From: an uncultured Victivallis sp.
GTDB taxonomy: Bacteria; Verrucomicrobiota; Lentisphaeria; Victivallales; GWF2-50-93
Reading direction: 5' to 3'
Length of the DNA stretch: 64,000 bases
Assembly (NCBI GenBank): GCA_964600895.1
Contig: CAZRKP010000005.1
Location: forward strand, 118,068 to 182,067
Both the position numbers and the translations under genes were made by a program. The notes under the pieces were generated by a model. The model saw nothing but the letters and a program-made list of their open reading frames with translations, was not told the DNA's origin and did not search any database. This document shows, one piece after another, positions 21,934 through 33,383 of this stretch. The stretch's first letter is position 1. Every line of letters begins with the position of its first letter.

Positions 21934-22944
21934 ATGAAATATGACCGTAAAAACTTCACGATGATTGAGATCGTCCTGGCGATATCCGTCATATTCATTC
22001 TTCTCAGCCTTACCTTGCCTGGAATCCAGAAGGCCAAGCTGAAGGCCAAAGCCGTAAGATGGCTTGCCTACAACAATGGACTCAACAGGGATCCTGATCT
22101 GGTATTGAACTACAATTTCCAGAATCCTGATATGAGAATGGACACTCCAATGGGAAATTGCGATGTGGTCATCAATGGCGGAGTGGGTTGCGGATTCGAC
22201 GGATTCAAGCCGGAAAAATATAATGCGGTCATGATGAACGCACCCGAATGGAAAAAATCCGGAAGATGGTTGAGTTTTGACAAGTCAATGTCATTTGACG
22301 GTTTCACAGGATACCTCCAGGTTCCAGGCAATGAAGTCCTGAAGCTGACCCCTGGAAGTTCGGATTTCACCGTGGCGGGATGGGTGAAGTTTGATGTTCT
22401 TGGAGGAATCCAGGTCGTCATCTCAAAATCCCTCTGGCCGAACTACTCGGTCTTCGCGATCTATTCCCTGAACAATTCACTGAATGCGGACATCGGCTCC
22501 ATGACTCTTTCCTATACTGGAAATGACTTCAAGGCCGGGAAGTGGTTCCATTTCGCGCTTGTGGCCGACGGCCCGCAGATCTCCTTTTATGTAAACGGGA
22601 AGATTGCTGATTCCTCAAGCTTTGGGTCCGGTGGCAAGGTTGTAATATCTCATGATCCTGGCAACGGTGATCCTCCACACGTTCTTGTAGTCGGCGCCGC
22701 AGGATGGAATGGACACAAGAACCATCCTGGAGATCAGTTGCTTTCAACGGATCCAAACGCGTATTTCCAGCAGAACTATATTCAGGACATCAAGGATACA
22801 ACCGTTATCATTGGTGCAGCCGGGATGCAGGATGCTGCCCCCAGCTTGTTTTTCAAAGGTGCAATGGATGAGATAATACTCTCAAGAAGAGCCTGGAAGA
22901 AAGATGCGGTAAGTGGTCATTTTGAAATGGGAAATCCTTACTAA
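21934..22944 (+). CDS. Prepilin-type N-terminal domain fused to a LamG/concanavalin-A-like lectin domain
   Basis: 'FTMIEIVLAISVIFILLSLTLPGIQKAK' followed by 'DFTVAGWVKF...GKWFHFALVADGPQISFYVNG...FKGAMDEIILSRRAW', a LamG-like pattern. Confidence 0.75.
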   Translation: MKYDRKNFTMIEIVLAISVIFILLSLTLPGIQKAKLKAKAVRWLAYNNGLNRDPDLVLNYNFQNPDMRMDTPMGNCDVVINGGVGCGFDGFKPEKYNAVMMNAPEWKKSGRWLSFDKSMSFDGFTGYLQVPGNEVLKLTPGSSDFTVAGWVKFDVLGGIQVVISKSLWPNYSVFAIYSLNNSLNADIGSMTLSYTGNDFKAGKWFHFALVADGPQISFYVNGKIADSSSFGSGGKVVISHDPGNGDPPHVLVVGAAGWNGHKNHPGDQLLSTDPNAYFQQNYIQDIKDTTVIIGAAGMQDAAPSLFFKGAMDEIILSRRAWKKDAVSGHFEMGNPY

Positions 22945-22962: not shown

Positions 22963-24801
22963 ATGGCAAGGATAATAGCTGCTGACGACAATAAGATAAC
23001 CCAGATGTTCTACGAGAACATTTTGGAATTCCTCGGCCATGAATACAAGATATGTTCAAACGGCGAGGAGGTCATCGAGGAGTTCATAAGGAAACCAGTG
23101 GACCTCCTGATACTTGACTACCAGATGCCCAAGATGGACGGATTTGAGGTCTGCCGCAAACTCAGGGCTTCTGCGGAAGGAATAACTGTCCCTATAATCA
23201 TAGTCTCCGCCATGCAGGATGAGGAGACCATCATGGAGGGACTCGATGCAGGAGCTACCGACTATCTGCTCAAACCGGTCACAGAAGCACATCTGATTGC
23301 AAAGCTCAAGAACTATCTTAATACTTCCTCCCTTCACAGGAAGGATCTGGATCTTGTGAAGAGCCAGACTGTCTTCGCCGGCCATTACAAGATCGAAAAA
23401 CTGCTCGGATATGGCAGCCATTCAGTGGTTTTCCTGGCGAAGGACAGGAAGAACAATGATGCCGATGTCGCCATAAAGCTCCTGCATGAGAATTCAGATA
23501 CCGTGGCAATAGCCCCAACATTCATGGAGACGGCCTCCAGGATGAGGAATTTGAACTCCGAAAACATATTGAAGATACTTGATTCAGGCCAGTATGGGGG
23601 TCGCCTCTATCTGATAATGGAATACGCGAACCAGAAGGATCTCGCTTCACTGCTGAAGACAAGAACCCTCACCGACAGGGAGACGGCTCTTCTGATATCA
23701 AGCATGCTGGAAGCACTGAAGACACTAAAGGAAAACAACCTCGTCCATTTTGACATAAAACCGGAGAACATCCTGATAAAGGACAATCTCTTCAAGCTGG
23801 GCGATTTTGGGATAGTACCATCTGCCAATGCTAAAAGTACGATTTCACTGGACAAGGGGAATGTCTGGACAACGATGTCCTATCTTGCCCCGGAAAATCT
23901 GAATCTCTCCACAGATCAGACATTCTCTCCTGATATAAGATGCGACATCTACAGTCTTGGTGTCACTGCATATGAATCATTTTCCGGAGACAATCCTTTC
24001 GATTCTGACAAGCTCACTGTTTCAATTCACAGGCAGCTGAGCTATGTCCCTCCTCCATTGCATGTCCAGACTCCTGCGATCCTGCGCATACTTTCAGATG
24101 CTATTGAATCAATGCTCAGGAAAAATCCCGAGGAAAGGGCTGAACTCGACCAGCTTCTGCCTGCTTTTGTGGAAATAAACGCCTATCTCGCGACCAAAAA
24201 TCCTGTCTTAGTAGGATATACTACCGGTTCAGAGGCCAAGCCTGAGGAACAGAAACCTGTCGGTAATGCCGGTCCTGCCCAGGAACCATCAAAATCTGAA
24301 CCTGCTGAAGCCAGCGAACCAGTTCTGGAACCGCTGTCCAAAACATATTTCAGGGAGCTTCCCTACAGGGAGGCCTATGATTTCAAATATAAGGCTCTCA
24401 GGCTCATTGCTGCCGTTGCAATTCTGGCAGTAAGCACCTGGCTCAGCCTGACATTATACAAGTTCATGTTGAACAAGATGACCCCTGTAGATGATACTGC
24501 TTCCATATACGCGGTCAAATGCAGGAGTTGCGGACAGTTCCAGGAAATGAACATAACTGACATAAAGAATGCAAAATGCCAGTTCTGCAAAAAGACAGAT
24601 CTTTGCTATATGATGACTTGCGACGACTGCGGAAACGTATTCCCGTTCAGAAATGAATATCCGAAGGATGTAAAGTCAAAGGAAGAAATGATAGAAGCTC
24701 TTCAGCAGATGAACCGCTGTCCATCATGCGGCTCATCGAAGATCGAACCTTCATATACGAATATCAAGATGCTGAAGAAGTTCAAATCCGAAAAGAAGTG
24801 A
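22963..24801 (+). CDS. Response-regulator receiver (REC) - Ser/Thr protein kinase - TM - double zinc-ribbon fusion protein
   Basis: REC: 'IIAADDN...DLLILDYQMPKMDGFEVCRKLR...DYLLKPV'. Kinase: 'VAIKLL', 'HFDIKPENILI', 'GDFGI', 'YLAPE'. TM: 'LIAAVAILAVSTWLSLTLY'. The C-terminus has CxxC pairs ('CRSCG..CQFCKK', 'CDDCG..CPSCGS'). Confidence 0.9.
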   Translation: MARIIAADDNKITQMFYENILEFLGHEYKICSNGEEVIEEFIRKPVDLLILDYQMPKMDGFEVCRKLRASAEGITVPIIIVSAMQDEETIMEGLDAGATDYLLKPVTEAHLIAKLKNYLNTSSLHRKDLDLVKSQTVFAGHYKIEKLLGYGSHSVVFLAKDRKNNDADVAIKLLHENSDTVAIAPTFMETASRMRNLNSENILKILDSGQYGGRLYLIMEYANQKDLASLLKTRTLTDRETALLISSMLEALKTLKENNLVHFDIKPENILIKDNLFKLGDFGIVPSANAKSTISLDKGNVWTTMSYLAPENLNLSTDQTFSPDIRCDIYSLGVTAYESFSGDNPFDSDKLTVSIHRQLSYVPPPLHVQTPAILRILSDAIESMLRKNPEERAELDQLLPAFVEINAYLATKNPVLVGYTTGSEAKPEEQKPVGNAGPAQEPSKSEPAEASEPVLEPLSKTYFRELPYREAYDFKYKALRLIAAVAILAVSTWLSLTLYKFMLNKMTPVDDTASIYAVKCRSCGQFQEMNITDIKNAKCQFCKKTDLCYMMTCDDCGNVFPFRNEYPKDVKSKEEMIEALQQMNRCPSCGSSKIEPSYTNIKMLKKFKSEKK

Positions 24802-25329: not shown

Positions 25330-25731
25330 CTAAGCACTCTTTACATAGTTGAATTTAAAGGAACCGGTGCCGATGGGAATCACAGCGTCATCAAAGAGCC
25401 TGTAGGTATCCTTCTCGAATTTCTGTCTGTTCTGGCCTAAAACATGCACTTCGAAGTATTTCTCGGCAGGATGGCATATGAGCTCGAGGTGGTGCCTTGA
25501 AACAAACTTGTCTGTTATTGTGATGTGATTGCCAGATCCCCTTCCTATGGAATACGACAGGGGTAGAAGATCTATTACAGTTCCCTCCTTAATGTTCTCA
25601 AAGGGATCGATGCATACAAGCCTGGCCACTACGAGGTTCTTCTTGCAATTGGGACAGGAAAGTGAATTTCTGCCATTGTCCGCCCCGCAATGGAAACATT
25701 TGAAAGATTCTTCCATCTCCACTTCTCCCAT
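25330..25731 (-). CDS. Zinc-ribbon + FHA domain protein
   Basis: 'CFHCGADNGRNSLSCPNCKK' is a zinc ribbon. 'IGRGSGNHITITDKFVSRHHLEL...' is the FHA GR...SxxH core. Confidence 0.8.
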   Translation of the reverse strand: MGEVEMEESFKCFHCGADNGRNSLSCPNCKKNLVVARLVCIDPFENIKEGTVIDLLPLSYSIGRGSGNHITITDKFVSRHHLELICHPAEKYFEVHVLGQNRQKFEKDTYRLFDDAVIPIGTGSFKFNYVKSA

Positions 25732-25851: not shown

Positions 25852-27549
25852 ATGAAAATGCCATTCCCATCTGTCTCAAGGACAATCATAGTTCTCATGC
25901 TGTTTTTGTCGACCGCCGCTTCGGCAAGGGCAATAAGCTGGGAGTTCTCTGAAGTCTCGCTTTCGATCCGGCCAGACGGCAAGGCGACGGTCGTGTATCA
26001 AGTTGCAATCAATCCCCAGGGCTTCAACCTCCACGGATTCTATTTTGAAGGGTTTACTGGTAAGCCGCATTTCGACATGACACGCTGTTTCGCCCTTGAC
26101 GCGCAGAACAAAAAATATGATCTTTCAATAAAGCCTGTGAGCAGTTCGAAATACGACGTGATCCTCGCAAATGGCGCCGCCATCTCAAACAGCCGGGTGA
26201 TCTACAATCTAACCTATGGCACCGATCTCGCTGAAACCGGCAATCTTGCAGCTACAACATCTTCGGATGGAAAGAATCTCGTGGTCCTCAACTGGGCACC
26301 GGTCCAATGGGAGGATCCTGTCGGACACTATGCCCTGAAGATATACTGGCCAATGGAACTGCCAGACAACAAGGCTCCACGAGAAGAACTCTCGAAGAAA
26401 ATCCTGACTGAACAGTGGATGAACAAGCAATACAAGATGGACTATCGCGCCCAGGAATACAACGGAAAATTCTGGCTGATGCAGCTAATATACTGGGAGA
26501 AAGTGCCTGTCAAGGGGCATTTCCGCATCCAGGAATACGTCGATGCCTCCATCTTCAACCTTCCGGCAAAGAAATCCGCAGACTTGAATACAGGACTCGT
26601 CGAACCTCAGCCGGATGGAGGGAAACAAGTCCAGAATTTTGTACCTCCGACGAATGAACAGAACAACTATGGAGAGAACATAAGGAAATATTCGGTCATT
26701 GCATTGGCTGTGATGGCGGTCATACTGATCATTGCATTCCTGATCATAGTGATCGGAAAACACAACAGCATGCTGAGCGCAGCTGACGGGCTTTCGGATG
26801 TAAGCTGGATAGATCAGGACTGGACTCCTCCGAAAATGATCATCACAACTTTCAGGGAAAAGGGGAAGATCCCGAAGCTTTCAGTTCTTGAAGCCGCCTT
26901 GTTCATCGGTCTTCCAGTCAACCGTATCCTTGGAATAATGCTTGGCAAACTCCAGAACCAGGGGGTGGTAAGTCTCCATGATGACGGTCGCATAGATGTC
27001 CTTGATGCTGGAGCAAACCTCGATCAGTTCGAAACTCTGCTTGTACAGGCTGTAGGTCCGGACAACAGGCTCAATCCCGACAAGATCCGTGGACTGGTGA
27101 ATCTCATGGTAGATGAGATGCGCCGCAAATCCTGGGATGCCGACCCTGAAGCGACCACGGAATTTTACACCAATAAGTTCAGGGAGTCCTTTGAAAAGAA
27201 GCCACAGCCCACTGAACAGGATAAAAATTCCCAGCAGTATTATTATGACAACTATTATCCCTACTGGTTCTACTACTGCCATCATAACCATGACTCATAT
27301 CAAACTGCCAGCAATCAAGTTCCCAAGACCGTTCAGGGCAGTCTTGATTCGATTACTGGAATATCCGGGGACTACAAGAGCTTCATGGACAGCCCGGCCT
27401 GTTACCAGGGATGCTTTGTCCATACCGCATGCCATGATGCTTGTCACTCGGCCTGCCATTCGGCGTGTCATTCAGCATGTCATTCGGCATGCCACTCTGC
27501 GTGCCATTCTGCATGCCATTCAGCCTGTGTCAGCGGAGGTGCACATTGA
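25852..27549 (+). CDS. DUF2207-like single-pass membrane protein with a C-terminal Cys/His-rich (Ala-Cys-His-Ser)n repeat tail
   Basis: Signal peptide 'MKMPFPSVSRTIIVLMLFLSTAASARA'. N-terminal domain 'SLSIRPDGKATVVYQVAINPQGFNLHGFYF'. One TM at about aa 280-303 (26689-26760). 'LSVLEAALFIGLPVNRILGIMLGKLQNQGVV' resembles the DUF2207 post-TM motif. The tail reads 'CYQGCFVHTACHDACHSACHSACHSACHSACHSACHSACHSACVSGGAH'. Confidence 0.85.
   Translation: MKMPFPSVSRTIIVLMLFLSTAASARAISWEFSEVSLSIRPDGKATVVYQVAINPQGFNLHGFYFEGFTGKPHFDMTRCFALDAQNKKYDLSIKPVSSSKYDVILANGAAISNSRVIYNLTYGTDLAETGNLAATTSSDGKNLVVLNWAPVQWEDPVGHYALKIYWPMELPDNKAPREELSKKILTEQWMNKQYKMDYRAQEYNGKFWLMQLIYWEKVPVKGHFRIQEYVDASIFNLPAKKSADLNTGLVEPQPDGGKQVQNFVPPTNEQNNYGENIRKYSVIALAVMAVILIIAFLIIVIGKHNSMLSAADGLSDVSWIDQDWTPPKMIITTFREKGKIPKLSVLEAALFIGLPVNRILGIMLGKLQNQGVVSLHDDGRIDVLDAGANLDQFETLLVQAVGPDNRLNPDKIRGLVNLMVDEMRRKSWDADPEATTEFYTNKFRESFEKKPQPTEQDKNSQQYYYDNYYPYWFYYCHHNHDSYQTASNQVPKTVQGSLDSITGISGDYKSFMDSPACYQGCFVHTACHDACHSACHSACHSACHSACHSACHSACHSACVSGGAH
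27427..27534 (+). repeat. Coding tandem repeat: nine 12-nt units encoding A-C-x-[D/S] (1x ACHD, 7x ACHS, 1x ACVS)
   Basis: I read the codons directly. Every 12-nt unit differs from the others at synonymous positions (Ala gca/gct/gcc/gcg, Cys tgc/tgt, His cat/cac, Ser tcg/tca/tct). Confidence 0.95.
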
Positions 27550-28880
27550 TCGATGCCTGGAAAAACAAGGATGCTTTCTCATGGGTGGACGACTATTTCT
27601 CCCATGTCAGACCTCATTTTGACGTAAGGGAGGAAGACAGTCTCCTGATCATACTTCCTAACCGGGCGATGAAGTTGAACAATACCGGTTTCAAGGTCCT
27701 GAAATTCATGAAGGACGGGGGTTCAATCGATAAACTGGTTGGCAAGATAGGGGAAAATGATGGCCGGCGCAGGGAACTTTTCCATTTCCTCTGCGATTTT
27801 CGCAGCCTCATGACCGGATGTCTTGGCGAAGGCAGGGGGCGCAAGGCGGTTTCCATAGAAAAATATTCTGGTTTATTCAATTCACTTCCGGTGCTTTCGG
27901 AGATCGCCGTCACCTACCGTTGCAACCTGAAATGCAGGTTCTGCTACGCTGCATGCGGATGCCGGCGGAAAGATGAAGATGAACAAGAAATGTCCACCAA
28001 TGAAATCAAACGCGTCCTCGGTACAATCAGAAATGACGCCAAGGTCCCATCGGTCAGTTTTACAGGAGGAGAACCTCTTCTCAGGAATGATCTGGAGGAA
28101 CTTGTCTCTTCAGCAAAGAAAATCGGGCTGAGAGTCAACCTGATAACCAACGGAACGCTTCTTGCAGGAAATGATCGTGCAGGAAGGCTTCAGAAGGCGG
28201 GATTGAATTCGGCACAGGTTTCCCTCGAAGGTCCGAATGCAGAAATCCATGATGAACTTACGGAAGTTGCGGGCTCATTTGAAAAGACGATGGAAGGGAT
28301 ACGCGCCTTGAAGAAATCCGGAATACATGTCCATACGAACACGACCATAAATTCGAAGAATTCCGGCCATCTCGTGGAACTTGTCCGGACCGTATCGGAA
28401 CTCGGGCTGAGTCGGATGTCCATGAACATGGTGATTCCGACCGGCAGCGCAGTCAAATCAAAGCTGCAGGTCTCATACACGGAGATATGGCCAATAATCG
28501 AGCCAGTTCGAAATGAAGCGAGACGGCTCGGAATTGAATTCATGTGGTATTCACCGACCCCCATGTGCATATTCAATCCTCTTGCGGAAGGATTCGGCAA
28601 CAAGAGCTGTGCTGCATGCGACGGACTGCTCAGCATCGCACCGAACGGCGATATACTGCCATGTTCAAGTTATCCAAAATCCGTAGGCAACCTGCTGCGC
28701 CAGCCGTTCCCGGAAGTTTGGAATTCCGCTACCTCCCTTTTCTTCAGGAAAAAGGAATATGCGCCGGGAGAGTGTTCGGGATGCGGCGACTTTTCAGCCT
28801 GTACAGGAGCATGCCCTCTCTACTGGTCCGCCATGGGAACTGCCGAACTCGGTGAAAGGAGGAAGCATGCTGCTGCCTGA
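27546..28880 (+). CDS. Radical SAM / SPASM domain peptide-modifying enzyme with an N-terminal PqqD/RRE-like domain
   Basis: 'YRCNLKCRFCYA' is the CxxxCxxC motif. The SPASM motifs are 'CDGLLSIAPNGDILPC' (CX9GX4C) and 'CSGCGDFSACTGAC' (CX2CX5CX3C). The N-terminus 'LLIILPNRAMKLNNTGFKVLKFMKDGGSIDKLVGKI' is PqqD-like. The likely start is TTG 27546, overlapping the upstream TGA, with GTG 27585 as an alternative. The ORF-track start at 27441 is an out-of-frame reading of the repeat. Confidence 0.9.
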   Translation: MIDAWKNKDAFSWVDDYFSHVRPHFDVREEDSLLIILPNRAMKLNNTGFKVLKFMKDGGSIDKLVGKIGENDGRRRELFHFLCDFRSLMTGCLGEGRGRKAVSIEKYSGLFNSLPVLSEIAVTYRCNLKCRFCYAACGCRRKDEDEQEMSTNEIKRVLGTIRNDAKVPSVSFTGGEPLLRNDLEELVSSAKKIGLRVNLITNGTLLAGNDRAGRLQKAGLNSAQVSLEGPNAEIHDELTEVAGSFEKTMEGIRALKKSGIHVHTNTTINSKNSGHLVELVRTVSELGLSRMSMNMVIPTGSAVKSKLQVSYTEIWPIIEPVRNEARRLGIEFMWYSPTPMCIFNPLAEGFGNKSCAACDGLLSIAPNGDILPCSSYPKSVGNLLRQPFPEVWNSATSLFFRKKEYAPGECSGCGDFSACTGACPLYWSAMGTAELGERRKHAAA

Positions 28881-29868
28881 TCCAAAACGCCGTGGGGAGA
28901 TCCATTTTATCTTCGTGAAATCTATGCCATATACGACCAGGCTTTCCCTGATCGTCATTTTACTTCTAACTGGATTTGGATTGCAGATATTCCTCGGATG
29001 GACTGTAATTGGCGCCATATTCCTCCTTGTTTCATCCATGATGGGGATCGTGAAAGGATATACGAACGTACCGGAGGAGCTTGGTTCAAAGAAGGAATGG
29101 CGCTCGGGCGACAAGCAGCAGCTTGAAAAAATCCTCGAGATATCGGAGAATTCACGAAGATGGGACAGGAGCTTCATCGACATCACATGCCCCCATGGAT
29201 GCTTTACCCTTGCAGCAATCATTGGAGTCTTCTTCCTCTTTTATTTTGTAAGCTCCAGCTGCGGATATACCTGGCTTGCGCTCACAGTGTCCGTGGATGC
29301 CATCGTATTACTGTTTCCGCACTGGGTGACCGGTGTCCGTCGCATCCTGACAAATGCGCCTCTGACAGTGAAGGTTGAAAATCTCCTGCATATATATACC
29401 ATCTGGGAGGCTATCAAGAAGGATGGAGAGAACATGACCGTCCAACTCGAAGTAGTAAAGGGAACAAAAGGAGAGATGCCTGTTGACGCAAAACTGATTT
29501 TGCAGATACCGGCACTCGGTGAGGATTTCTTCGGTGTGCAGACACAGGTGGTCCTCAATAATGTCCAGGGATCTGATTATCCATATCTCTACTGTGTCCT
29601 TGTTGCAAAGGAAAAATTCGAACTTAGGAAAAAACTATCAAAGGTTTCCTCTGAGGCTGAAGAGTCTTCGAAATCCTCTGATTCATTCCTTGTCAGGCTG
29701 ATAAGGACATCTTCCGGAATCTGTACGGAATGGAAGTCCCAGGACGGCATGGATGTACTCGTGATCCGCCAGCAGACGACTCAGCAGACCGGATACCATA
29801 CCGACAGAAATGCCACGGAACGTCTTTTCAGGTTCGCTTTAAGCAAAGCCCGCAACCTTGTCAAGTAG
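28867..29868 (+). CDS. Uncharacterised membrane protein (about 4 TM plus a soluble C-terminal domain), third gene of the radical-SAM operon
   Basis: ATG 28867 overlaps the rSAM stop by 14 nt. Hydrophobic pairs 'LSLIVILLLTGFGLQIFLGWTVIGAIFLLVSSMMGIV' and 'CFTLAAIIGVFFLFYFV...YTWLALTVSVDAIVLLF'. No family was recognised. Confidence 0.7.
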   Translation: MLLPDPKRRGEIHFIFVKSMPYTTRLSLIVILLLTGFGLQIFLGWTVIGAIFLLVSSMMGIVKGYTNVPEELGSKKEWRSGDKQQLEKILEISENSRRWDRSFIDITCPHGCFTLAAIIGVFFLFYFVSSSCGYTWLALTVSVDAIVLLFPHWVTGVRRILTNAPLTVKVENLLHIYTIWEAIKKDGENMTVQLEVVKGTKGEMPVDAKLILQIPALGEDFFGVQTQVVLNNVQGSDYPYLYCVLVAKEKFELRKKLSKVSSEAEESSKSSDSFLVRLIRTSSGICTEWKSQDGMDVLVIRQQTTQQTGYHTDRNATERLFRFALSKARNLVK

Positions 29869-32105: not shown

Positions 32106-33278
32106 CTATGATGAGGGGGCTTTTCCATCTTCAATAAGGCCTATGTACCCGAAATGTATCGTCATGTCTCCCTTAATGCTTTGCACCTGCGACTTATCAT
32201 AATAAATTACAGAGCACCCTCCTAACTGGACAAGATCCCCGGAAACAAGAATCCTGCGTTCAATCCTTGAACCATTGACATAGGTTCCATTCGCGCTGCT
32301 TTCATCCTTGACTGAGACAGTTGTCCCTTTGAGTTCAAAGGTCGCATGATGGCCCGATACTGTTTCAGAATTTAAGATTACGTCTGAAGACCTGTCCCTT
32401 CCGGCCCTGAGTGTTTTTCCGACGGATACATGGAAGGGATTTCCTTTTTCCGGGATAACAAGCAGGAAAAGTCCTGTCTGTTCGGGAATTGAAACCGACG
32501 ACATCTTTATCCTTATATCATCAATCCTCCTGCTCAGAGCCCTGTTCATTGTATCCTGCACTATCGTTTCCCTGTAGTTTGGAGTGCTATCCACCAGCGA
32601 TTCCAATGCGGATAAGATCACCTTCTCGTTTTTCGTCATCATCGCCAAAGTCTCTTCATCTCCAATGTCCTGGATTATCTGCATAAATTCCTTCTGCACG
32701 ATACCGAGGAAGCGGCTTTTGTGCTGGTAGACTGTTCCCGGTCTGTCAATCCCCAGCCTTTTGCATACTTCATTTACATCCAAGCCTTCAAGGACATAAA
32801 GGCAGAACGATTTATATGTCAGCGAATCAACTTTTCCATATGCTTGCCTGAGAGCCTGGGAGACAACTCCCCTTATCCATATTTCATCATTTTCAGAGTT
32901 GTCGGATACAGCGAGTAAAATATTGTTTTCTACTGCATCTTTTTCATCTGATTCGCCATCTGGAGAGGCAAATAGTTCATTTTCATTCTTCCTGCTTCTT
33001 ATGGTATCAATCACTCGCGCGTAAACTATTTTTTTCAAAAGACCGCGGAAACGACCTTTTTCAGGATGATATTCGAACTCCGGCATTATCCTAAGGAGAC
33101 ATAGCATGGTCTCCTGGAATACGTCATCCAGAAGGGACGGAGGACAGCCCTTGTTCCTTGCCCATCCGGTGATGATGTCCCAGTAAAACTGTGCGAATTC
33201 GGTCCATGCCGTCTCGTCGGCAGGATTTTTGAGCCGCATAAGAAGCGTACAGTGGGTCATTTTATCTGAATACTGCAT
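32106..33278 (-). CDS. Sigma-70 family (ECF-like) RNA polymerase sigma factor fused to a C-terminal FHA domain
   Basis: Region 2-like: 'AWTEFAQFYWDIITGWARNKG...DDVFQETMLCLL'. Region 4-like: 'FCLYVLEGLDVNEVCKRLGIDRPGTVYQHKSRF'. FHA: 'LRAGRDRSSDVILNSETVSGHHATFEL...SSANGTYVNGSRI...GDLVQLG'. Start candidates are TTG 33311, ATG 33278 and ATG 33260. Confidence 0.85.
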   Translation of the reverse strand: MQYSDKMTHCTLLMRLKNPADETAWTEFAQFYWDIITGWARNKGCPPSLLDDVFQETMLCLLRIMPEFEYHPEKGRFRGLLKKIVYARVIDTIRSRKNENELFASPDGESDEKDAVENNILLAVSDNSENDEIWIRGVVSQALRQAYGKVDSLTYKSFCLYVLEGLDVNEVCKRLGIDRPGTVYQHKSRFLGIVQKEFMQIIQDIGDEETLAMMTKNEKVILSALESLVDSTPNYRETIVQDTMNRALSRRIDDIRIKMSSVSIPEQTGLFLLVIPEKGNPFHVSVGKTLRAGRDRSSDVILNSETVSGHHATFELKGTTVSVKDESSANGTYVNGSRIERRILVSGDLVQLGGCSVIYYDKSQVQSIKGDMTIHFGYIGLIEDGKAPSS

Positions 33279-33383
33279 GGATAAAATTATTATAAATAAC
33301 CCTTTTTTCAATATTTATCTAAATTTGAGGCGGTTCATGTTTTCAGGATATTTGGTGTGATTTTAGTCAAAATGCGCCTTCTT

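Follow-up and report, generated by a model that had tools for sequence, protein, structure and literature searches.

A three-gene cassette pairing an (ACHx)n-tailed membrane protein with a radical SAM/SPASM enzyme: a candidate for RiPP-like modification of a membrane protein

RESULTS AND DISCUSSION

A three-gene operon in a Victivallis metagenomic contig

We used computational analysis to examine a 64,000-nucleotide stretch of DNA from an uncultured Victivallis sp. (GenBank assembly GCA_964600895.1, contig CAZRKP010000005.1, positions 118,068 to 182,067; hereafter, the window). Between positions 25852 and 29868, three genes encode a membrane protein that ends in a run of Ala-Cys-His-Ser units (gene 1), a radical S-adenosylmethionine (SAM) enzyme with a SPASM domain (gene 2), and a second membrane protein (gene 3). 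A preliminary description of the window, made from the sequence alone, had proposed that the enzyme modifies the repeat tail of gene 1 in the manner of a ribosomally synthesized and posttranslationally modified peptide (RiPP). The operon sits on a 184.8-kb metagenomic contig and is laid out as follows.

25852..27549, + strand: gene 1, bitopic membrane protein of 565 amino acids (aa) with an (ACHS)n tail; the open reading frame (ORF) gives the same 565 aa in the source assembly
27535..27539, + strand: GGAGG Shine-Dalgarno sequence of gene 2, located in the codons for Gly-Gly at the end of the tail
27546..28880, + strand: gene 2, radical SAM/SPASM enzyme of 444 aa when read from TTG 27546
28867..29868, + strand: gene 3, 333 aa, two transmembrane (TM) hairpins and a beta-rich C-terminal domain; family without annotation

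The three genes, their overlaps, and their operon structure were borne out as first described. The TTG of gene 2 at 27546 overlaps the TGA stop of gene 1 (27547-49) and is preceded, 6 nt upstream, by GGAGG, while the ATG of gene 3 at 28867 overlaps the stop of gene 2 (28878-80) by 14 nt. Because of the overlapping stop and start codons and the Shine-Dalgarno sequence within the tail codons, gene 2 is predicted to be translationally coupled to gene 1. Since this Shine-Dalgarno sequence is formed by the Gly-Gly of the tail end (..VSGGAH), part of the conservation of "SGG" could reflect translational coupling. The gene caller of the source assembly placed the gene 2 start in frame at ATG 27513, which falls within the repeat array of gene 1 and yields 455 aa; the choice between the two starts has no effect on the other results. 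The window operon contains no small precursor ORF and has no room for one. A scan for promoters and terminators gave counts no better than those in shuffled sequence. Upstream of the operon is a divergently oriented FHA gene, and downstream of it lies a URO-D-family gene in convergent orientation. The closest genomic relative of the window is Lentisphaerae bacterium GWF2_49_21 (73 to 85% protein identity).

The tail of gene 1 is conserved as a peptide

The C terminus of gene 1 reads ...CYQGCFVHTACHD(ACHS)7ACVSGGAH and carries 11 Cys in its last 49 residues, which confirms the 11-Cys repeat tail of the preliminary description. Two elements can be told apart.

27370..27426, + strand: semi-conserved pre-repeat motif, residues 507-525, DYKSFMDSPACYQGCFVHT, seen in alignments across phyla
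27427..27534, + strand: repeat array ACHD-(ACHS)7-ACVS, residues 526-561, the candidate substrate

Tandem Repeats Finder (TRF) reported a period-12 array at 27448-27521, yet the nine 12-nt units of the window all differ in DNA (mean nucleotide identity, 67%) and draw on four codons for Ala, two each for Cys and His, and four for Ser. Because the units use synonymous codons and none is identical in DNA, the sequences indicate that it is a peptide rather than a DNA repeat that is under purifying selection. The tail recurs in more than 120 independent loci and is near-invariant, compared with ∼33% identity over the rest of the gene 1 protein. Across loci, (A/V)-C-H-(S>D,G) units are followed by A-C-V-S-(G/S)-G-(x)-H at the C terminus (R in Clostridia), with ACHS the most frequent unit (310 occurrences), then ACHD (56), ACHG (53), and VCHD (16). 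Overall, the number of units per tail ranges from 2 to 11. In the homologue set obtained by seeding with gene 3 (see below), most tails have 7 to 10 (mode, 7 to 8); distant clades retain 2 to 4 units. The pre-repeat pattern [YF]xxFxxSxxC[YFH]xG.[FY] is likewise kept across phyla, and we regard this motif as a candidate docking site for the recognition domain of gene 2. In seven loci (L055, L057, and L060-L064), the tails are pure (ACHS)9-11 without the CY.G.F motif.

Distant relatives have shorter or variant tails, such as ...ASACHSACHSACVSGGAH and ...ACYSACHNACVSGGAR, and the variants in proteins P0348, P0349, and P0368 comprise (ACHSACVHD)n...ACVSKF, ...ACACHSACHDACVSSCAGSF, and ...(CDSCHSS)3CDSSCVSDV. 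What varies least in the tail is the spacing of the Cys residues, the pairing of Cys with His, and a CVS near the C-terminal end, and all three of the proteins just named retain this "CVS." The (CDSCHSS)3 block of P0348 reads as canonical CXXCH. Four relatives that appeared to have no tail were considered as counterexamples and rejected, as none is clean. P0253 runs off the contig end, and the GC-rich P0263, P0282, and P0352 end in LPQRLPLGLPQ..., which is the ACHS repeat in another frame, so that frameshifts from assembly or gene calling account for them.

The repeat, the enzyme, and gene 3 occur together across phyla

We surveyed the cassette with two independent DNA-level scans. A profile scan seeded with gene 3, run on one genome per species (185,579 species), recovered 61 loci in as many species-level genomes, all of them metagenome-assembled genomes from uncultivated hosts. 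These fall into at least 12 phylum-level groups, comprising Lentisphaerae/Victivallaceae, Planctomycetota, Verrucomicrobia, Hydrogenedentota, an FCB-group bacterium, Nitrospiraceae, Omnitrophota, Elusimicrobia, Bacillota/Clostridia, Armatimonadota, Firestonebacteria, Acidobacteriota, and Myxococcota. Homologues of gene 1 and gene 2 were present at every locus with enough flanking DNA. The usual order is gene 1-gene 2-gene 3; in L055, L057, and L060-L064 (Acidobacteriota, Myxococcota, and related bacteria), the order is permuted to gene 1-gene 3-gene 2 with the gene set kept.

The second scan, seeded with the radical SAM gene, was run on metagenomes and yielded 80 loci (48 to 85% identity of the enzyme), with counts of neighbors limited to loci having at least 400 nt upstream or at least 700 nt downstream. 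A gene 1 homologue lay directly upstream of the enzyme in 66 of 67 loci with the required upstream sequence, and every one of these 66 homologues had at least three ACHx units. Gene 3 was present in 60 of 62 loci with the required downstream sequence; L003, which belongs to a divergent clade missed by BLAST, does have gene 3 (hhalign probability, 99.5%). The preliminary description had named orthologues of the enzyme that are not syntenic with Cys-repeat proteins as an outcome that would refute it, and synteny was found in all but one (L103) of the 67 loci with enough upstream sequence.

Protein databases gave a different picture of abundance. A search of a protein word index returned only seven gene 1 matches, and the impression of a very rare family that these created was an artifact. 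The seven consist of fragments, of proteins in which ACHD and ACHS repeats alternate, and of proteins whose tails are degenerate. When 1.84 billion representative proteins were searched in full with HMMER, 269 relatives emerged, including 62 with an E value of ≤1e-30. The exact gene 1 product is absent from a collection of 15 billion proteins that does include the proteins encoded by genes 2 and 3 of this contig. Proteins with perfect repeats seem to be missing from the word index, and this gap may be why the family was overlooked. The practical lesson is that a protein similarity search recovered 7 relatives against the >120 loci from DNA-level scans, and that the index appears to underrepresent such proteins.

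Gene 1 is predicted to place the tail in the cytoplasm

The AlphaFold2 (AF2) model of gene 1, built on an 8-sequence alignment, has moderate confidence, with a mean predicted local distance difference test (pLDDT) score of 63.8. Model and sequence agree on the anatomy upstream of the tail, as follows.

25852..25932, + strand: signal-peptide-like N terminus, residues 1-27 (...AASARA/IS), AF2 helix at residues 7-23, AxA-type end
25933..26556, + strand: periplasmic beta-sandwich ectodomain, AF2 strands at residues 27-231, pLDDT 70-87
26689..26775, + strand: single TM helix, residues 280-308, from AF2
26785..27207, + strand: conserved cytoplasmic domain, residues 312-452, from alignments, AF2 pLDDT 75-89

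The hydrophobic N terminus is kept among gene 1 homologues, and a low-confidence linker in the AF2 model joins the ectodomain to the TM helix. In the family consensus, R-K-H follows immediately after this helix, consistent with the positive-inside rule. Because of the signal peptide, the one TM helix, and the R-K-H directly after it, the C-terminal ∼255 residues, including the tail, are predicted to be cytoplasmic. The order of signal peptide, ectodomain, one TM helix, and C-terminal region of ∼255 aa therefore agrees with the preliminary description, and its cytoplasmic placement of the tail is upheld as a prediction.

The claim that gene 1 is DUF2207-like held in part. The window protein has no Pfam match at an E value of <0.1 and belongs to no NCBIfam family, whereas 18 of 39 gene 1 homologues match the N-terminal DUF2207 model (best E value, 7.3e-6). 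The gene 1 ectodomain is thus probably a distant relative of the DUF2207 N-terminal domain, at the family level and for the ectodomain only. It also resembles the N-terminal beta-sandwich of M1 aminopeptidases (Foldseek E value, 1e-6). The cytoplasmic domain is marked by W..DW.PPK...FRK.GK, a winged-helix-like core, and QxKxWDCDLEATKxYY, and AF2 models a confident helical/winged-helix-like domain at residues ∼340-450; a profile search against the PDB and a Pfam scan found no relatives of this domain.

Gene 2 has the architecture of a peptide maturase

Gene 2 matches the Pfam models Radical_SAM (3.9e-31) and SPASM (1e-9). Its features are listed below.

27582..27845, + strand: N-terminal PqqD-like domain of the RiPP recognition element (RRE) type, residues 13-100, from subthreshold Pfam and PDB profile matches
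27921..27944, + strand: radical SAM cluster motif CNLKCRFC (C126/C130/C133, CxxxCxxC), in invariant alignment columns
28566..28817, + strand: SPASM region with eight invariant Cys, namely C341, C355, C358, C373, C410, C413, C419, and C423

The CxxxCxxC motif and complete SPASM set noted in the preliminary description are both present, and the SPASM Cys set fits two auxiliary Fe-S clusters. We also observed that C137 and C139 (27954-27962, in CRFCYAACGC), directly after the radical SAM motif, are invariant and that C92, in the GCLGEG that ends the PqqD-like domain, is nearly so.

The pattern of the N-terminal 100 residues (beta-beta-beta-helix) is that of PqqD. Pfam found no PqqD match for the window protein, and gene 2 orthologues score just below the gathering cutoff of 23.4 bits (20.8 to 21.8 bits; E values, 2.4e-4 and 5e-4). 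When the N-terminal profile was compared with the PDB, PqqD-type RREs made up three of the top five matches, all in register (TfuB1, 0.16; PqqD, 0.39; PqqC/D, 1.4). The PqqD-like N terminus first proposed is therefore not detected in the window protein by Pfam, but the orthologue and PDB matches make it probable that gene 2 carries a PqqD-like RRE.

Gene 2 reaches no NCBIfam equivalog cutoff. Its scores are 162.4 bits for AhbD (cutoff, 500), 147.7 for NirJ2, 133 for GeoRSP, 130 for WgkB, 121.4 for NirJ, 113 for PqqE, and 89.6 for the radical SAM enzyme of the ACGX system (TIGR04340; cutoff, 400). Against the PDB, the gene 2 family profile matched SkfB (1e-28) and PqqE (1e-24), followed by BlsE, GDGT-MAS, SuiB (1.8e-16), CteB (3.8e-15), and anSME (7.6e-15). 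The domain matches, the PDB relatives, and the PqqD-like signals uphold the peptide maturase architecture of the enzyme. PADLOC indicated no defense association, with only generic viperin-type radical SAM similarity for gene 2 and no matches for genes 1 and 3.

Gene 3 is a second membrane protein linked to gene 1 by fusions

The AF2 model of gene 3 (pLDDT, 86.9) has TM hairpins at residues 22-59 and 109-154, in agreement with the four TM helices first proposed, and a beta-rich C-terminal domain at residues 164-332. All soluble parts lie on the K/R-rich side of the model, presumed to be cytoplasmic. Gene 3 belongs to no Pfam or NCBIfam family, its 113 homologues have no Pfam domains, and it has no PDB fold match below an E value of 0.1.

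Two fusions bear on the relation between the membrane proteins. In P0362 (622 aa; L147:4491-6359), a gene-1-type ectodomain and TM helix are fused to a complete gene-3-type module (hhalign probability, 97%; E value, 9e-11), and in P0383, residues 1-383 of gene 1 are joined to the gene 3 C-terminal domain (probability, 97.6%); the latter could be an assembly chimera. Because of these fusions, we suggest that genes 1 and 3 work as one membrane unit.

The cassette is a self-contained module

Clustering of all flanking ORFs revealed no fourth conserved gene. In a Pfam census of 148 immediate neighbors from 113 nonredundant cassettes, NifU was the sole recurrent neighbor, in 11 cases, and only in Elusimicrobia-type loci. 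In L031, L034, L035, L042, L043, L045, L047, L048, L050, L053, L054, L056, and L059, NifU is encoded on the cassette strand, ∼100 nt beyond gene 3; NifS follows NifU in most of these loci. A small membrane protein (∼190 aa) precedes gene 1 in 11 of the NifU-bearing Elusimicrobia-type loci. These genes, and the ABC-ATPase-like genes found near the cassette, are lineage specific. Because the gene set is kept and no fourth neighbor is conserved, the cassette is a self-contained three-gene module spread over many genomic contexts.

A proposed modification of the cytoplasmic tail

The sequences show the anatomy of the cassette, its predicted topology, the strict co-occurrence of its genes, and purifying selection on the tail; the role of the tail as substrate, the chemistry, and a complex of genes 1 and 3 are inferred. 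We think it rather probable that the radical SAM enzyme modifies the cytoplasmic tail of gene 1, probably by thioether cross-links, with the product remaining tethered and gene 3 acting as a membrane partner. In such a scheme, gene 2 would dock on the semi-conserved motif just upstream of the repeats and then modify the repeat units one after another. The most likely modification would be thioether cross-links from Cys sulfur to carbon, as in sactipeptides or ranthipeptides, with each ACHx unit receiving one. The modified product would remain attached to the gene 1 membrane protein, and gene 3, with its soluble parts facing the cytoplasm, would be the membrane partner of gene 1.

The action of the enzyme on the tail is suggested by its maturase architecture, by translational coupling, by near-strict co-occurrence, and by the fact that the tail is the most conserved part of gene 1. 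It is also suggested by the presence, in curated libraries, of predicted radical SAM systems with Cys tetrapeptide targets (TIGR04117 and ACGX). Thioether chemistry appears most likely by analogy with established SPASM enzymes, namely those of sactipeptides and ranthipeptides (freyrasin) and QhpD; freyrasin has six CX3D units and is made by iterative action of PapB on repeated Cys motifs. That the product stays tethered is suggested by the absence of a protease or exporter and by the conservation of the whole membrane protein.

Several observations weigh against this proposal. Cys/His-rich tails can simply bind metals, and the AF2 confidence for the tail is low (pLDDT, 30 to 40). The RRE signals are subthreshold, with no PqqD match in the window protein and PDB E values of 0.16 to 1.4. 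The tetrapyrrole-modifying AhbD and NirJ2 slightly outscore the peptide maturases (133 bits and below), and the sequence therefore does not place gene 2 firmly among peptide enzymes. In L103, a 2.4-kb contig, an orthologue of the enzyme with 54% identity has an amidohydrolase-like gene upstream and not gene 1, and L090 and L091 have no gene 3 in the available downstream sequence. Finally, the fusion P0362 has no adjoining radical SAM gene, so the pairing of ectodomain and gene 3 can exist without the pair of tail and enzyme.

Going further, the enzyme might build a protein-derived cofactor, turning the tail into a rigid cross-linked or cofactor-bearing (Cys-His)n array on the membrane protein. 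Examples would be a Cys-His cross-link ladder binding a chain of metal ions or heme-like groups at CX3CH/CXXCH-like motifs, and through the array, together with gene 3, the periplasmic ectodomain would be linked to a redox or signaling function in the cytoplasm. We give this version little credence; if true, it would represent a new class, in which RiPP-type maturation of a membrane protein gives a tethered cofactor and not a secreted peptide.

Alternative explanations

The tail could instead be an unmodified Cys/His element that binds metal or Fe-S clusters as a sensor, store, or scaffold, with the enzyme using it as a scaffold or cluster donor or acting on a substrate encoded outside the cassette. 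Every unit has a Cys-His pair, the top NCBIfam matches of the enzyme are not peptide enzymes, and NifU and NifS stand directly after gene 3 in 11 to 13 Elusimicrobia-type loci; redox or Fe-S genes are also found beside some relatives, namely, those for Rrf2, ferredoxin, and Hcp at L149 and those for rubrerythrin, desulfoferrodoxin, and OsmC at L147. The NifU association is limited to one lineage, however, and the tail co-occurs strictly with an enzyme that has a PqqD-like N terminus. The 4-residue register is also extremely well kept, including the nonligand Ala and the terminal ACVS, whereas simple metal-binding tails are usually conserved in composition and not in position. We therefore regard an unmodified tail as unlikely, while noting that metal binding and covalent modification are compatible with each other. 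Less probable again is a classical RiPP with a giant "leader," whose tail is modified, cut off, and released or exported, gene 3 being a processing or export component. The RRE-radical SAM-SPASM architecture would suit such a system, small CXXX- and ACGX-repeat peptides are predicted radical SAM substrates, and gene 3 is a membrane protein with no assigned function. But neither the three proteins nor their conserved neighbors have a protease or transporter domain, gene 3 matches no Pfam, NCBIfam, or PDB family, and no conserved cleavage motif, such as GG or GA, precedes the repeats. Conservation across phyla extends moreover to the ectodomain, the TM helix, and the cytoplasmic domain of gene 1, which argues that the whole protein is the functional product.

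The CX3CH formed by adjoining units (CHSACH) might also be read as a variant c-type heme motif to which an AhbD/NirJ-related enzyme attaches heme or another tetrapyrrole in the cytoplasm. CX3CH occurs in every pair of units, the distant relative P0348 has the canonical CXXCH in its (CDSCHSS)3 block, and AhbD, NirJ2, and NirJ are the best NCBIfam matches. These scores are far below the family cutoffs (162 versus 500 bits), though, the N-terminal PqqD-like domain points to a peptide and not a tetrapyrrole, and the ACHSACVHD variant (P0349) breaks CX3CH in alternate units. Known bacterial heme c attachment is periplasmic, whereas the tail is predicted to be cytoplasmic, and no cytochrome maturation genes occur among the conserved neighbors, so the cassette does not look like that of a c-type cytochrome. 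The hosts include Clostridia, Elusimicrobia, and Omnitrophota, groups with many members not known to synthesize heme, and one heme per 8 residues would be sterically extreme. Heme attachment is thus very improbable. Last, the period-12 DNA array and the low-complexity tails in which DUF2207-type proteins often end could have pointed to a repeat born by replication slippage, with no specific function, and to coincidental gene adjacency. This account is refuted by units that differ by synonymous changes, none being identical, by the same peptide repeat in at least 12 phyla within a narrow range of copy numbers, and by the synteny in 66 of 67 loci.

Comparison with known systems

The preliminary description had called this a system not recognized from earlier work, and this stands, as neither gene 1 nor gene 3 fits any NCBIfam or Pfam family, gene 2 is under every equivalog cutoff, and neither the repeat nor this combination of genes turned up in the papers of the searchable library. 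The system works like an RRE-radical SAM-SPASM maturase on a Cys-repeat target, yet it is in no curated family. Among the closest known systems is the "Cys-Xaa-Xaa-Xaa repeat radical SAM target protein" family, TIGR04117, in which a C-terminal Cys array with 4-residue spacing also lies beside a radical SAM/SPASM gene. TIGR04117 was the sole NCBIfam model touched by the tail, at 10.9 bits (E value, 0.37), far below the cutoff of 50. Whereas its targets are ∼98 aa long, the repeat here is part of a membrane protein of 565 aa that also has an ectodomain and a TM helix; the unit here is strictly A-C-H-x and ends in ACVS, and there is a third conserved gene. To our knowledge, the CXXX-repeat maturase system is a prediction that has not been experimentally characterized. 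The ACGX system shares an Ala-Cys-x-x tetrapeptide repeat as presumed target and a SPASM-type enzyme, but His takes the place of Gly here, gene 2 falls well short of the TIGR04340 cutoff, and the substrate of that system is a small peptide and not a membrane protein.

Ranthipeptide and sactipeptide synthases (PapB, CteB, SkfB, and SuiB type) have in common with gene 2 the RRE (probable in gene 2), the CxxxCxxC motif, the auxiliary cluster architecture, and, in the case of freyrasin, the logic of a Cys-repeat substrate. In contrast to those systems, the cassette has no short leader-core precursor gene, no protease, and no exporter, and the candidate substrate stays part of a membrane protein. 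The unit is without a fixed Asp/Asn/Thr acceptor, except for the Ser/Asp/Gly of its fourth position. QhpD/QhpC and anSME resemble our proposal in that the target of a SPASM radical SAM enzyme is Cys in a protein that stays the functional product, but there one to three sites are modified in enzyme subunits that are soluble or periplasmic, whereas gene 1 offers a tandem array of 7 to 10 sites on the predicted cytoplasmic tail of a membrane protein. The target motif of anSME (C/S-x-P/A-x-R) does not occur here. Like gene 1, DUF2207 proteins (PF09972) have a signal peptide and a TM helix as well as an ectodomain of beta-sandwich fold. Gene 1 differs from them in having one TM helix and not several, in having no detected DUF2207 C-terminal region, and in its Cys/His tetrapeptide tail, since DUF2207 tails are Gly rich.

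The known substrates of radical SAM/SPASM maturases that carry a recognition domain are small exported peptides and a few soluble enzymes. Here, such maturase logic is locked, in an essentially invariant way across a dozen phyla, to the predicted cytoplasmic tail of a ∼560-aa membrane protein and to a second membrane protein that has no match in the available libraries. If the tail is modified, RiPP-type chemistry would extend to integral membrane proteins, the 7 to 10 identical ACHx units with their conserved docking motif and ACVS end would offer an iterative substrate for enzymology, and two unannotated protein families would be open to experiment.

Other genes near the cassette

Four regulatory genes of the window that surround the cassette encode proteins that are not conserved with it. 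They are a protein with a prepilin-type N terminus and LamG (21934-22944), a hybrid of receiver, Ser/Thr kinase, TM segment, and C-terminal zinc ribbon (22963-24801), a small zinc ribbon and FHA protein (25330-25731, − strand), and a fusion of sigma-70 region 2 with FHA (32106-33311, − strand). At L147, two rubrerythrin copies, desulfoferrodoxin, and OsmC genes lie divergently upstream of P0362. L149 (OW818698.1, 2207-7342) places the cassette in an 8.2-Mb chromosome, where it is adjoined by a divergent Rrf2 regulator, a ferredoxin, and the hybrid-cluster protein (Hcp). Gene 1 of this locus was called as 489 aa plus a separate 129-aa ORF upstream, and its N terminus may be split or frameshifted.

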